From positions 1 to 38,191 of IMG/VR virus record IMGVR_UViG_2778261450_000003: DNA of 38,191 bases. One strand, 5' to 3'. A program made the position numbers and the translations under genes. Of the stretch, positions 26,057 through 36,990 are shown in pieces. How positions within the stretch are numbered: position 1 is the stretch's first letter; each line of letters starts with the position of its first letter. The notes beneath the pieces were generated by a model. That model did not search any database and had not been told where the DNA came from. It saw only the letters and a list, made by a program, of their open reading frames with translations. The stretch is from a virus. Lineage: Duplodnaviria > Heunggongvirae > Uroviricota > Caudoviricetes.

Positions 26057-27016
26057 TTACTCCTTGTCCATTGCGTACAGCCCATTAACCAGAGCAAACT
26101 GTGGCACCCCGTCCGCGATGAAAGTCGCATTAACTCCGCAGGCTTCGCGGATAGCGGGTGCCACAATATCAGCCCCTCCACCGACAACCATCACCCGTCC
26201 GTACCCCGAAAAACCAGCCAGCGCACGGATCACACGTTGTTTCAGTGTTTCTTCCTTTTCATGAATAACCGCCATCAGGTTGGCGTAATGCGCGTCATTG
26301 TGAATGTGCTGGCGCAGCCAGGCTTCATCGTGGCGATGTTCGATAATGGTATTGGCGATGTGGTGACTGGTGCGCATACCGTTAGTGGCCATCACCGACA
26401 GTACAGCATCGGCCATCAGAGAAACGCCTACGTGTGGATCGCAAAACACCTGGCTGATACCTGCCAGTTGTCCCTGAACCTTTGCCACATCCAGCGTGGT
26501 TCCGCCTAAATCAACAATAAGCAGGGATTCAAACGGACTCATGTCAGCCAGCGCCTTAAAGCCTGCCGGAATGGATTCAGGCATAACCCGCACGTTACGG
26601 ATAGTGAATGCTTTGCCGTTCTGGTACTCCACCGGGCGCATGACGTTCGCTTTTTTTCGGTTGATGTTTGCCATGTCCGGCTGTGCGTTTGTGTCGAAAT
26701 ATTCGCTCAGTGGCAGGGTGACAACCACATCCACTTCCTGTGGCGTGATGCCTGATTTGACCAGTGCGTGATGAATGGCAATGACATTCACATCACTGTA
26801 CTGGTATTGCGTGTCGGTCGTCTGGACAAAGCGATCGCTGACCGGATCAAAACCATAGCGCACGCTATCAAGCATGTAGTTCGCGGGCTGCATGCCACCG
26901 AACGGCGCAGACCATTCCGACTTGAAGCTGTTCGGGCTGATGGCGTTGCGGCGTTCGCTGTTCTCAGTCCATGCCAGCTTGATGTTGGTTGAGCCGTCGT
27001 CGATGTAAATTTTCAT
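26057..27016 (-). CDS. parM: ParM/StbA actin-like plasmid segregation ATPase
   Basis: 319-aa ORF with AAGGAA RBS; N-terminus MKIYIDDGSTNIKLAW...ISPNSFK...YQYSDVNVIAIHHAL matches remembered R1 ParM (MLVFIDDGSTNIKLQW...ISPNSFK...WQYSDVNVVAVHHAL). Confidence 0.85.
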   Translation of the reverse strand: MKIYIDDGSTNIKLAWTENSERRNAISPNSFKSEWSAPFGGMQPANYMLDSVRYGFDPVSDRFVQTTDTQYQYSDVNVIAIHHALVKSGITPQEVDVVVTLPLSEYFDTNAQPDMANINRKKANVMRPVEYQNGKAFTIRNVRVMPESIPAGFKALADMSPFESLLIVDLGGTTLDVAKVQGQLAGISQVFCDPHVGVSLMADAVLSVMATNGMRTSHHIANTIIEHRHDEAWLRQHIHNDAHYANLMAVIHEKEETLKQRVIRALAGFSGYGRVMVVGGGADIVAPAIREACGVNATFIADGVPQFALVNGLYAMDKE

Positions 27017-30590: not shown

Positions 30591-30957
30591 GATATGTGGC
30601 CTCTTGTAGTAAGTTGTGAAAACTCACCATCCAGAGCTGCGAAACTGTGGGTGGCGAGACGTACGAGGTTCGCAGTACCGGCTACAAGAGATCCCGGCCC
30701 GACCGAAGTCGGCCCCGTACGCCCCGCCATAATTCTGACGCGAAAAAAACGTGGCAATACAGTACACACAAAAAAACCGCTGGCGCGGTTGTGCGCTCTT
30801 GTAGTCAGCAGGCTGCGAAACCCGGCACCCGTTTTATGAGGTGCAGCGAAAATGTAACCTGACTGATTGCGGCATGGCAAGCGGTTTTTTTGTGAGAACG
30901 GCATACTAAAAAATCCTGATACTGCTCCGGCCAGCGGTTTGCACTGGCCGGGTGTCA

Positions 30958-31788
30958 TTACTTCACGGGAACGAACGGAACAGCGGTGTTACTGGTCATG
31001 TATTGCGGCAGCGTGCCGTTCCATTTGTTGATCGCTTCCAGCTCCATAACGCCGGGATTCTGGCGCAGAGCTTCGCCGCGTAAACGAATGGCGTCGGCTT
31101 CAGCCTGGGCTTTTGTGCGAATGGCATCGGCCTGTCCGGCAGCTTCTGCGCGCAACATGTTGGCTTCTGCTTCGCGTTGCTTGACTTCCTGTTCGCGTTG
31201 CAGGGTTTTCTGGTTTGCCGTGACTTTGGCGTTAATGCTGTCGATAACGGTTGGCGGATATTCCGGTTTACCGACATAAGAGAGGCTCATGACCTGAATA
31301 CCGATGGGGGTCATCTCTTCCTGAATATCTTTAAGTGCTGAATCCAGCAGTTCAGACTTACCACCGTCGATAAACTTATCGGTGGTCATTTTGCTGGCCA
31401 GTCGGTTGAGTGCATCGGCGATCTTCTGGCGCAGGTCAGTGTCGGTAATGTCGTCCACGCCTTTGCGGTAGGTCTGAAACACCGTGGTAACTTTGGATGG
31501 ATCAACTTTGTAGGCCACGCCGATGTGATAGCCGATGGTTGTGCCGTCACTCATCTGGAAGTTGAACGGCTCATCGTAAGTCTTCATTTGTTTGAAGGTC
31601 GGGAAGATGTAAACCTCTGTATTCCAGCCTGTCCAGTAGCGGCCAACGCCAACCACTTCACCGACGCCTTTGTCGTCGCCCAGTTTGTTGACTTTGATGC
31701 CCACATTACCTGGCTCAACGCGATCGCAACCAACCAGCAGGATGGCGGCAAAAAGCGGGAGAATCTGAAAGAGTTTGAATTTCTTCAT
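30958..31788 (-). CDS. SPFH/band-7 (stomatin-prohibitin-like) lipoprotein
   Basis: 276-aa ORF; N-terminal signal with lipobox LLVGC; central SPFH-like region and Ala/Glu/Arg-rich coiled-coil C-terminus typical of band-7 proteins. Confidence 0.7.
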   Translation of the reverse strand: MKKFKLFQILPLFAAILLVGCDRVEPGNVGIKVNKLGDDKGVGEVVGVGRYWTGWNTEVYIFPTFKQMKTYDEPFNFQMSDGTTIGYHIGVAYKVDPSKVTTVFQTYRKGVDDITDTDLRQKIADALNRLASKMTTDKFIDGGKSELLDSALKDIQEEMTPIGIQVMSLSYVGKPEYPPTVIDSINAKVTANQKTLQREQEVKQREAEANMLRAEAAGQADAIRTKAQAEADAIRLRGEALRQNPGVMELEAINKWNGTLPQYMTSNTAVPFVPVK

Positions 31789-31988
31789 TGTTTGATTTCC
31801 TTGATGTACTTACTGAAAAGGCGAACAACGCCTGCCGGGTACAGCATGGCAATGAAAATTCCCAGCAATACCAGGAAGGAGCTGTCTGATGAAATCATTC
31901 GGGGGAGTAGTCCTGCATACAGAATGAGAGAGACGAGGACGCATACCAGCGCCCACATGTATGCGCGAAACCAGGTCTTTTTGTTCAT
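31785..31988 (-). CDS. small two-helix membrane protein coupled to the SPFH gene
   Basis: 67-aa ORF with two hydrophobic segments; its stop overlaps the SPFH ATG (ATGA). Confidence 0.5.
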   Translation of the reverse strand: MNKKTWFRAYMWALVCVLVSLILYAGLLPRMISSDSSFLVLLGIFIAMLYPAGVVRLFSKYIKEIKQ

Positions 31989-32764: not shown

Positions 32765-33175
32765 CTATGCGTTAAATACGGTGTGTTGGGCGTCATCAAT
32801 GAATGCAACTTGAGAGCGCTCTATCAGGCGGAGATTTGTCAGAATCTCTGATTCCCTTATGGGGTGAGGAGTGATCAGGTATTTATCCTGTAATCCGGCG
32901 ATAATGGTGTATCGCTGTAGCTCCGAGCCAATTGTGTAAATAAGGCGTCCGGTGTTAGACAAATCCAGTCCGGTGACTGGTTGTGTTCTGAGAACCGCCA
33001 GTTCAGCATCCTGTTTTGCGATAATTTCGGCTGCTTCTGCCGTGACTCTTGCGACTATCAGTGTGTGGGTTGCGACGTCCATATGTGCATTTGCCACGGC
33101 TTTTTTCGCTACTTCGTTTTCTGTCTTTGAAATTTCTTTCAGTGCTCTGATGATACCTTCTTCTTTTGCGTGCAT
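32765..33175 (-). CDS. hypothetical early protein
   Basis: 136-aa ORF; no family recognised. Confidence 0.4.
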   Translation of the reverse strand: MHAKEEGIIRALKEISKTENEVAKKAVANAHMDVATHTLIVARVTAEAAEIIAKQDAELAVLRTQPVTGLDLSNTGRLIYTIGSELQRYTIIAGLQDKYLITPHPIRESEILTNLRLIERSQVAFIDDAQHTVFNA

Positions 33176-33268
33176 TTTTGTATCTCCGTTATTTGCGTGT
33201 GCGAATACCCCCGTTAATACGGATGGTTTTCACGTTTTCTTATTTAATTTGATGTTTTATTTGTATCG

Positions 33269-33382
33269 TTATTCACCAGTGAAAAAGCGTTCAATCTTTT
33301 TTACTGAATGAATAATTCGCATAATCCCAATGGCGCAGGCCACCGAAATAATCAGAACAAGCCATGAGATAAATATACTCAT
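33269..33382 (-). CDS. small hydrophobic peptide (37 aa, single predicted TM)
   Basis: ORF MSIFISWLVLIISVACAIGIMRIIHSVKKIERFFTGE; ATG overlaps the stop of the 80-aa gene (ATGA); below the ORF-track cutoff. Confidence 0.3.
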   Translation of the reverse strand: MSIFISWLVLIISVACAIGIMRIIHSVKKIERFFTGE

Positions 33383-33621
33383 GCAATATTCCCCAGCTTA
33401 TACGGTTCAATATGTTCCCCGCATTCTGCGGCACAGATCAGCTCGGAAAGTTCGTTAAGTGCATCCAGATCATCAGCGTAAAAAGCCACGTCATACAGAC
33501 TCCGGATTGCCCTGGTCAATGAGTCACGGGCTGCACGTTCAGCATGAGCGCCTGATGCACTTAAGCGAAAATAAAAACGCTCAAGTGCTTTATTAATGAG
33601 AGTTTTATATTCTTTGCCCAT
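33379..33621 (-). CDS. hypothetical small protein
   Basis: 80-aa ORF in the early operon. Confidence 0.4.
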   Translation of the reverse strand: MGKEYKTLINKALERFYFRLSASGAHAERAARDSLTRAIRSLYDVAFYADDLDALNELSELICAAECGEHIEPYKLGNIA

Positions 33622-35012: not shown

Positions 35013-35474
35013 TTATAGCCCTGCCTGCAGTGCACTGATGCTATTGCGTTTTAGAACCCGATGCTCTTTACCGGTTGTGCGGCGATAAGTCTTCTTGTCA
35101 CGCATCAGACGATCAATGTAGTGTTTTTCTTCTGGAGTGATGAGAGCGCGGCAATGAGCAACAGCTTTCCAGTATTCTTGCAACATGATGAAGCGTTTAG
35201 GGCGCTTTGACCCGGGCATGCCTTCTCTATGAACTGGCACCTGCGCACGATCCATCAGGTTGCGCACCGATTTGAGGGTACGACCAGTTAGATAAGCAAA
35301 CTCTTCCGGAGTGGCGAAGATTTGTTTTTGTAGCTCTTCCAGGCTGATGTCTCTGATGCGCGCAGCTTGTGTTTCTGTCATTTTGCAGGTACGCAGAGCT
35401 CGTCCGTTGTCTAGCGGGAACTGACGTAAAAAATGAGTTTCCATATTTAATTCGTTTTCTCGCATTTCTTTCAT
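35013..35474 (-). CDS. Cox-like early regulator with N-terminal extension
   Basis: 153 aa from the ATG at 35474 (GGAG RBS); C-terminal half (TPEEFAYLTGRTLKSVRNLMDRAQVPV...W) resembles P2 Cox (QEFAKLIGKSTGAVRRMIDKGKLPV...W); divergent from the repressor gene. Confidence 0.5.
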   Translation of the reverse strand: MKEMRENELNMETHFLRQFPLDNGRALRTCKMTETQAARIRDISLEELQKQIFATPEEFAYLTGRTLKSVRNLMDRAQVPVHREGMPGSKRPKRFIMLQEYWKAVAHCRALITPEEKHYIDRLMRDKKTYRRTTGKEHRVLKRNSISALQAGL

Positions 35475-35598
35475 TTGATAAACTCCACTGCTTGAGGCTT
35501 GTTGAGGCATGTTTAGCCCAGCAAGCTCTTGGTGTTATGAGCGGTCAACGCCGCTTGCGAGTGTCAATTGATGTATACAATGAGAGATCTGACATATT

Positions 35599-35898
35599 AT
35601 GTCAATACCACTACATGAAAAACTACAGTTAATCCGAGATTCAGAACGCCTTAAATCTAAGCAAGTTGCTGATTTGATTGGTGTAAATTATGGTACGTAC
35701 AACGGTTATGAGTTAGGCAAGGCGAAAATGTCATTGGAGGCTGCGATCAAACTCTTTGGTCATCCCCGTTTCCATAAGTATCAAGATTGGTTCATGTATG
35801 ACCGTATAGACCCTAGCCGAGGTCAGATCGCCCCGGCTCTTGCACACACTGGGCCAGAGACAACACAATCTGGCCCCTCCGGGAAACAGATTGGTTAA
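35599..35898 (+). CDS. immunity repressor, P2 C-like
   Basis: 99-aa ORF; ADLIGVNYGT...YQDWFM...RGQIAPALAHTGPETTQSGPSGKQIG matches remembered P2 C (ADLTGVPYGT...TLWFM...SGQIAPALAHFGQNETTSPHSGQKTG); directly upstream of the integrase. Confidence 0.75.
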   Translation: MSIPLHEKLQLIRDSERLKSKQVADLIGVNYGTYNGYELGKAKMSLEAAIKLFGHPRFHKYQDWFMYDRIDPSRGQIAPALAHTGPETTQSGPSGKQIG

Positions 35899-35967
35899 CG
35901 CTTTATAAACATTACATTTTCACCATTTGTTTTCAGGATGGTGAACTGACTGTTGGAGGGACTTCTT

Positions 35968-36990
35968 GTGTCTGTTAAGAAGCTCGAAGATGGTCGCTAT
36001 GAAGTGGATGTAAGGCCGCGCGGGCGCGACGGAAAGCGTATCCGGCGGAAGTTTGAGAGAAAAGCGGAGGCGCATGCTTTTGAACGAAGCATCATTGCAA
36101 AGTATCAGAACCATGACTACCTGAGTCGTCCTGCAGACAAGCGGCGACTGAGTGAGTTTATCGCTTTGTGGTGGCAGCTCATTGGACGTAATAAGAACTA
36201 CGCTAATCGTAGGCTTAGTGCGTTAAGCTGTATTTGCCAGGATATGGGGGATCCCATGATTTACCAGATTGATGGTCGATGCCTTATCGAATACCGGGCA
36301 TATAGATTGGGGCAAGGTATAAAGGCTTCAACGATTAACCATGATCTTTTTGCTCTGAGCGGTATGTTTAAGGCGATGGCTGAGATCGATGAGTTTCATG
36401 GGGATAATCCTGTAGAGGCAATATCTGCTTTAAAAGAGCCAAAAACTGAGATGTCTTACTTTACCGAGTCTGAGGTTAAGCGGTTATTATCCTTATGCAC
36501 TGGTGATTATTTCCGGATTGCTGTTCTCTTGCTTGCAACTGGTGCGAGGTGGGGTGAGGCTTATCAGCTCAAAGCGGAAAATATTGTGGGTGATAGGGTG
36601 ATATTTACGCTTACAAAAAATGGCGAGCGACGAGTTGTTCCCATTTCAGAGGAGGTTGTAAATATTGTAAGGCATCGAGAATCTGGTCGACTTTTTCGTG
36701 TGAGTTACAAAACTTTTCGTTTAAAAATGAAAGAGGCAAAACCTAATTTACCTGATGGTCAGGCAGCTCATGCATTGCGTCATACGTTTGCTACTCATTT
36801 TATGATGAAGGGCGGGAATATAATTGCGTTACAAAGAATTCTTGGTCACGCAGATATTTCACAAACAATGACATATGCTCATTTTGCACCTGATTATTTA
36901 TTGGATGCAGTGAATTATAATCCTCTTGTGGGAATGTCCACATTGTGTCCACACTTTGGAGGCAAAGTGGGGATTTTAGAGGGTAGTTAA
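35968..36990 (+). CDS. int: tyrosine integrase, P2 Int-like
   Basis: About 340 aa from the GTG at 35968 (GGAGGG RBS; the track's ORF starts at TTG 35953); N-terminus KKLEDGRYEVDVRPRGRDGKRIRRKF and C-terminal HALRHTFATHF...LGH...TMTYAH catalytic region match P2 Int. Confidence 0.85.
   Translation: MSVKKLEDGRYEVDVRPRGRDGKRIRRKFERKAEAHAFERSIIAKYQNHDYLSRPADKRRLSEFIALWWQLIGRNKNYANRRLSALSCICQDMGDPMIYQIDGRCLIEYRAYRLGQGIKASTINHDLFALSGMFKAMAEIDEFHGDNPVEAISALKEPKTEMSYFTESEVKRLLSLCTGDYFRIAVLLLATGARWGEAYQLKAENIVGDRVIFTLTKNGERRVVPISEEVVNIVRHRESGRLFRVSYKTFRLKMKEAKPNLPDGQAAHALRHTFATHFMMKGGNIIALQRILGHADISQTMTYAHFAPDYLLDAVNYNPLVGMSTLCPHFGGKVGILEGS

Follow-up and report, generated by a model that had tools for sequence, protein, structure and literature searches.

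A conserved 37-residue reading frame overlapping the DUF4754 gene of P88-like prophages very probably encodes a small membrane protein

A 37-aa open reading frame (ORF) that overlaps the stop codon of the DUF4754 gene in P88-like prophages is, in our assessment of its substitution pattern, very probably a real translated membrane-protein gene. The ORF stands above chance because it is conserved and its substitutions are frame-specific and third-position-biased. The gene is already annotated in public databases and is a member of no described family. It was analysed within a 38,191-nucleotide stretch of viral DNA, hereafter the window, which is a P88-like E. coli prophage whose region is 86–96% identical to P88-like phages (genus Xuanwuvirus, family Peduoviridae, P2-related).

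Results

Sequence and predicted topology of the peptide

A first-pass annotation of this DNA had described a 37-aa ORF with a single hydrophobic helix, starting in an ATGA overlap on the stop of the 80-aa gene at 33379–33621, and both the ORF and the overlap were recovered as described (Table 1). The translation, taken from the window sequence and the ORF list, is MSIFISWLVLIISVACAIGIMRIIHSVKKIERFFTGE, and its start is unambiguous, with an in-frame TAA six codons upstream and no start codon in between. Residues 3–21 reach a mean Kyte-Doolittle value of 2.68 in a 19-residue hydropathy window, against a usual membrane-span threshold of ~1.6 on this scale, and with 37 residues and a single predicted span the product falls in the class of small membrane proteins of at most 50 aa. 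The tail that follows carries a net charge of +2 here and of +2 to +3 over all four lineages tested, with a hydrophobic moment of 0.36–0.65 across those lineages. The positive-inside rule is an established basis for the prediction of membrane topology, and because the tail is net positive, it predicts that the N-terminus lies outside and the tail in the cytoplasm, giving a putative N-out/C-in topology. The length of the ORF by itself is no evidence of a gene: the ORF list has 74 entries with a length of 20 aa or more that overlap the surrounding 4 kb.

Table 1 Coordinates of the peptide gene, its parts and its neighbours in the window
Feature	Position	Strand	Remarks
37-aa small membrane protein gene	33269..33382, stop codon included	-	ORF list; annotated in relatives; intact in 104/104 related sequences; pN/pS 0.10-0.40
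Predicted transmembrane helix, codons 3-21, IFISWLVLIISVACAIGIM	33320..33376	-	Hydropathy window 2.68; S6, W7, L10, G19 invariant
Basic amphipathic tail, codons 22-37, RIIHSVKKIERFFTGE, predicted cytoplasmic	33272..33319	-	I23, I24, K28, I30, E31, F34 invariant
ATGA overlap: peptide start codon and DUF4754 stop codon TGA	33379..33382	-	Sequence; kept in 104/104 related sequences
Shine-Dalgarno-like GGGGAA, 6 bases 5' of ATG, inside DUF4754 coding sequence	33389..33394	-	Anti-SD duplex energy -5.5 kcal/mol
Conserved stem-loop in 93-base spacer 3' of peptide gene	33201..33233; core 33210-33223	-	MFE -14.9 kcal/mol, z = -2.8
80-aa gene, Pfam DUF4754, helical soluble protein	33379..33621	-	Pfam E = 2.8e-54
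Integrase	35953-36990	+	
HTH repressor	35599-35898	+	
165-aa ORF in cox position	35013-35510	-	No Pfam Cox match at E ≤ 0.001
67-aa membrane protein ('membrane protein' in P88)	31785-31988	-	
276-aa SPFH/Band-7 protein ('lipoprotein' in P88)	30958-31788	-	ATGA overlap with 67-aa gene
940-aa replication protein gpA	29915-27093	-	Ends long run of closely packed genes

Conservation and coding constraint

The sample for comparison comprised 97 related loci retrieved through the upstream gene and through divergent family members, to which further ones retrieved through the peptide itself were then added. The ORF and its ATGA junction were kept in every one of the 104 sequences examined at this first stage, which bears out the conservation in relatives that the first-pass annotation had named as a check, and the products measured 37 aa (n = 88), 41 aa (n = 9) or 45 aa (n = 7). 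Among 70 distinct DNA versions, the variable sites were distributed 13, 6 and 23 over codon positions 1, 2 and 3 (chi-square p = 0.005). Comparison with the most divergent locus of the first set (L094) gave a dS of 1.29 and a dN of 0.148 for the peptide, a ratio of 0.11, with control ratios of 0.10 for the DUF4754 gene and above 2 for two shifted frames.

Over nine lineage pairs, the NG86 pN/pS of the peptide was 0.10–0.40, with Fisher p values down to 4e-6, and both segments are constrained, the helix at 0.21–0.31 and the tail at 0.28–0.39. Within the close lineage, the segregating-site ratio was 0.28 for the peptide and 0.20 for DUF4754, giving no sign of relaxed selection on the peptide. 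The earlier annotation had held that synonymous-site variation showing no coding constraint would speak against a gene; constraint was found, and the reading of the ORF as a gene stands.

In the deepest relatives (L098 and L099), the peptide retains 54–57% identity, compared with 38% and 32% for DUF4754. An 80–85-aa gene (80 aa as called on the assemblies) occupies the DUF4754 position in both, the ATGA overlap and the Shine-Dalgarno-like motif persist, and the pair sits in an equivalent operon, between a cox-type gene and gpA. Eleven peptide positions are invariant in the alignment (A1), namely M1, S6, W7, L10, G19, I23, I24, K28, I30, E31 and F34, and the window peptide displays the pattern of the P88 gp07 type, with 37–41 aa, an N-terminal hydrophobic helix and the motif SW...G...II...K.IE..F. 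A peptide-alignment scan of viral contigs matched 276 contigs, and the 80 loci listed were all 97–100% identical to the window peptide.

Alleles with altered tails were also recovered. A 1-base deletion in the T5 run at 33284–33288, present in 7 of the 104 sequences, leads to a 45-aa product with a different tail, and in two protein clusters (P0064 and P0065) a homopolymer frameshift in the A-rich run at 33296–33301 replaces the conserved tail. Such replacements imply that the tail is dispensable or decaying in some prophages; the frameshift alleles may reflect either genuine decay in a subset of prophages or errors of sequencing.

Junction with the DUF4754 gene

The Shine-Dalgarno-like motif remains purine-rich and 6–8 bases 5′ of the peptide ATG in every lineage, despite different encoded DUF4754 amino acids. 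The duplex of the peptide start with the 16S 3′ end had an energy of −5.5 kcal/mol in the window, and values in other lineages ran from −4.3 to −8.5 kcal/mol, whereas the mean over all ATGs in the window was −1.7 kcal/mol; the value of the window peptide is comparable to, and typical of, those of neighbouring operon genes. The locus has the layout of a coupled pair, a stop/start overlap with a ribosome-binding motif within the upstream gene, suggesting that DUF4754 and the peptide may be translationally coupled by re-initiation. However, ATGA overlaps occur at four further junctions of the operon, those of the wHTH, Ead, SPFH and 121-aa genes, so that the ATGA is a house style of the operon and no proof of partnership. 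The claim of the first-pass annotation that the peptide is coupled to an early gene is thus retained in part: the overlap, the motif and the position in the operon agree with it, but the ATGA is less special than it would appear in isolation, and 'early' is itself a deduction.

The upstream protein gives no functional lead: its AlphaFold model is confident (pLDDT 88.8, helices 4–48 and 52–66), but Foldseek searches of PDB and BFVD brought up generic helical bundles only, none of them at E ≤ 0.001. In two loci (L096 and L097) DUF4754 is frameshifted and the peptide ORF is intact; this frameshifted lineage (L096 3001–3330, L097 601–930) was seen on 8 contigs. A 109-aa cluster (P0037), considered as a natural DUF4754–peptide fusion, was rejected as a frameshifted DUF4754 allele that crosses the peptide gene in a different frame. 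One locus (L004, NZ_JBQPOM010000071.1), labelled Vagococcus sp. WN89Y, is a 226-kb contig bearing this E. coli prophage region with a 98% identical DUF4754, and its Firmicute label is likely to reflect assembly contamination or mislabelling.

Operon and prophage context

The peptide gene lies on the minus strand between the integrase/repressor side and gpA. The gene order on this strand begins with the 165-aa ORF, small ORFs, DUF4761, a 92-aa gene, DUF4754 and the 37-aa ORF, continues with a 136-aa gene, a 67-aa gene, and winged-helix and Ead/Ea22-like genes, and closes with the 67-aa membrane protein, SPFH, Ash-like and 121-aa genes followed by gpA. Such an arrangement in P2 is the early operon, and by this analogy the peptide is probably expressed early in lytic growth. 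P2 orf78-83 and 186 fil and dhr are accessory genes of the P2/186 early operons; the peptide gene is placed like them, with the cox-type switch gene on one side and replication gene A on the other, but has no sequence relationship with them. A scan of the minus strand found no promoter-like or terminator-like site near the peptide gene, a negative result that is weak because the same scan missed the expected early promoter. The DUF4754–peptide pair is fixed, whereas gene content beyond the spacer varies from lineage to lineage.

Several observations concern the surroundings. P88 and an otherwise identical locus (L001) have Cox proteins, unlike the window, whose 165-aa ORF without a Cox match implies a different type of immunity switch. 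The operon of the peptide gene contains a second small-membrane-protein pair, the 67-aa and SPFH genes at 30958–31988 on the minus strand, and just downstream of the SPFH gene, within the region of a 224-aa Ash-like ORF, the C4 antisense RNA (RF01695, 81 bits) and the isrK Hfq-binding RNA (RF01394, 67 bits) match above the Rfam gathering score at 30647–30734 and 30770–30844 on the minus strand. Just after gpA, P88 has gp17–gp18, annotated as a plasmid segregation protein resembling ParM and as a partition protein, and the window has a same-sized ORF of 319 aa there (26057–27016, minus strand). The annotated hok/gef-family toxin of P88, gp52, is located near the other end of that genome.

A conserved stem-loop in the downstream spacer

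The core of the stem-loop 3′ of the peptide gene reads TCCGT-ATTA-ACGGG here and TCCGC-N4-GCGGA in most relatives, and it is unchanged even in the most divergent loci, those with DUF4754 32–38% identical, where the rest of the spacer is altered. The stem-loop is more stable than shuffled sequences (z = −2.8). One two-sided compensatory change, C-G to U-A, was seen, and the variants TCCGT..ACGGG and TCCGT..ATGGA retain G-U pairing on the sense strand only. An intrinsic terminator on the sense strand was rejected, as no T-run follows the stem-loop, and a terminator on the opposite strand, where a T-rich stretch does follow the stem, is disfavoured because the G-U variants pair only on the sense strand. 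The comparison of sequences makes a sense-strand RNA element the more likely interpretation. The stem-loop marks the precise boundary between the conserved and the variable genes.

Distribution and annotation of the family

When 1.84 billion representative proteins were searched exhaustively with HMMER, the result was nine clusters of 22–59 aa, all of one family, whose most distant full-length members are 41-aa proteins with 54–57% identity; cluster member names include Salmonella and Shigella. A tblastn search of 50,697 phage records brought up 14 P88-like records, an unclassified fecal phage contig as a weak match and nothing further, so that the matches included no P2- or 186-named record. 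The window peptide is 100% identical to gp07 of Escherichia phage P88 (YP_009113050.1), and phage phiSM, from Citrobacter, carries the identical peptide. Of 5,426 complete E. coli genomes, 1,362, about a quarter, contain a 501-base stretch spanning the locus, O157:H7 and O104:H4 strains among them. The peptide family has no name and is narrow, being limited to P88-like prophages in Escherichia and its close relatives. It had no Pfam, PHROG, NCBIfam or PADLOC match, and the sub-threshold hits to PET117 (E = 0.19) and phrog_5620 (E = 0.38) are noise.

The first-pass annotation had called the ORF hidden and expected automated annotation to miss it, which is contradicted by the databases. PGAP calls the identical ORF in a 100%-identical E. 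coli locus as WP_000021656.1, 'hypothetical protein', and the annotation of an O157:H7 genome contains WP_000021655.1; gp07 is named 'membrane protein' in the P88 RefSeq record, and the corresponding names are 'putative membrane protein' in ON470599 and 'Prophage membrane protein' in UniRef. Gene calls on public assemblies list the gene as well. The feature pattern of DUF4754 plus at least two hypothetical proteins was present in 29 of 30 spread-sampled genomes, the 30th of which matched only 8% of the query. Annotation is not universal, because two RefSeq phage records (NC_049344 and NC_049341) have no feature at the peptide locus. The literature searched contained no mention of DUF4754, of the accessions or of the sequence, and the peptide gene is passed over in the papers on P88, phiSM and CP-933T.

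Discussion

From the pattern of conserved residues and the adjacency of the two genes, we tentatively favour a role for the peptide as a partner-binding modulator, rather than as a toxin or exclusion factor. The peptide would be transcribed within the long early operon, from the immunity switch to gpA, on entry into lytic growth and not in the resting lysogen, a timing that we infer by analogy with the P2 early operon. Ribosomes ending DUF4754 at the TGA in the ATGA would then re-initiate on the peptide, helped by the Shine-Dalgarno-like motif, and the product would insert in the inner membrane, the N-terminus facing out and the basic tail reaching into the cytoplasm. In this position it may bind as its partner the co-expressed DUF4754 protein or else an inner-membrane protein of the host, through the invariant Ser6-Trp7/Gly19 of the helix and the invariant K28-x-I30-E31-x-x-F34 of the tail, acting in the mode of a small regulatory membrane protein as opposed to a non-specific membrane-damaging toxin. 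Specificity is favoured over crude membrane damage because the tail is constrained as strongly as the helix, because conservation is higher in the peptide than in its neighbour, and because the DUF4754–peptide pair is fixed while later genes vary. K-12 lysogens of phiSM grow like wild type (PMC6456863), and since phiSM has the identical peptide, the gene would be silent or harmless in the lysogen.

The closest likeness in the databases is the P88 gp07 gene itself (WP_000021656.1), which shows no difference and likewise overlaps the DUF4754 stop in the early region. Among characterised systems, the small regulatory inner-membrane proteins of E. coli of at most 50 aa, of the AcrZ, MgrB, MgtS and CydX type (PMC12648545), are alike in size, single helix and short charged tail, and, as in the peptide, they have conserved residues on helix and tail, suggesting specific protein contacts. 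By contrast, the peptide has no sequence relationship with them, is phage-encoded, lies in a putative early lytic operon and is paired with a soluble DUF4754 protein. Another plausible model is gp56 of SPO1, which acts through DivIC/FtsL to block division (bioRxiv 10.1101/2020.02.06.938217) and is similarly a small phage membrane protein from an early/host-takeover region, although the two share no homology and host, phage type and size differ.

The first-pass annotation had noted that coupled membrane peptides in phage early regions are often toxins or exclusion factors, a plausible guess that the profile searches neither back nor refute. A membrane-damaging small toxin of the type I or holin-like kind, whose effect would be to depolarise the inner membrane or make it permeable, perhaps to shut the host down early in lytic growth, is a somewhat unlikely alternative to the modulator. 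Like the type I toxins (Hok/Gef, TisB, Ibs, Ldr, ShoB), the peptide is small, very hydrophobic and encoded on a mobile element, and in size, single helix and short charged tail it is similar to Hok, TisB, Ibs and Ldr. Toxins of this sort are frequent in prophages (PMC12648545), and P88 itself has gp52 elsewhere in its genome. Against this, no toxin or holin family matched in Pfam, NCBIfam, PHROG or PADLOC at E ≤ 1, no Rfam family, antisense RNAs included, was found within 2 kb of the locus at the gathering score, and the gene is internal to a long polycistronic operon and is no stand-alone cassette. Nor does it sit in a lysis cassette beside an endolysin, as a holin gene would: in P88 the holin gp30 and endolysin gp31 are at 17.9–18.6 kb and gp07 is at 2.9 kb, about 15 kb apart. 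The idea of a type I toxin-antitoxin pair was rejected, as the sole opposite-strand promoter-like site (33127–33154) falls within the 136-aa gene, absent from P88 and other lineages, and promoter-like sites were fewer than in shuffles. The constraint on specific tail positions also argues for the modulator over a toxin; known type I toxins have conserved polar tails too, however, so tail conservation does not exclude toxicity.

Less likely still is a superinfection-exclusion factor in the inner membrane that would block DNA entry of other phages. The predicted membrane location and phage origin would suit such a function, phage early genes can encode exclusion proteins, with T4 Imm and Sp blocking the DNA entry of other phages during lytic growth, and the prophage type is present in about 25% of complete E. 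coli genomes. Yet PADLOC and Pfam gave no defence or exclusion match, the peptide is much smaller than known exclusion proteins, and its gene is fixed in every related locus retrieved, whereas the downstream genes vary. By analogy with P2, a gene that follows the immunity switch in the run of genes towards gpA should be repressed in lysogens, which would also count against exclusion. That the ORF matters only as a translated stretch, keeping ribosomes on the mRNA, or is a chance ORF without a function of its own, is very improbable. Small ORFs are common by chance, as counted above over the surrounding 4 kb, and some alleles have altered tails, but the amino-acid sequence is conserved and not just the frame, as the pN/pS values and the eleven invariant residues indicate. 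In addition, the peptide keeps its 54–57% identity where synonymous sites are saturated, the shifted frames are without such constraint, and the 93-base untranslated spacer means that the ORF does not bridge to the next gene, so that a chance or sequence-independent ORF appears essentially excluded.

The favoured modulator could be extended, speculatively and with little expectation of being right, to a conserved two-protein module specific to P88-like phages, in which the peptide would tether or target the helical DUF4754 protein to the inner membrane and the pair would disable a host membrane machine early in lytic growth. Candidate host targets of such a putative module are division, envelope synthesis, transport or a membrane-bound defence system. 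If this were true, about one in four sequenced E. coli would carry a host-takeover device that has not been described before.

The peptide gene contradicts nothing in current understanding. It is widespread, it clearly evolves under purifying selection and in the deepest relatives it has diverged less than its neighbour, and since small phage membrane proteins have repeatedly proved to be specific inhibitors of host machines, it is a reasonable candidate for a targeted experiment.
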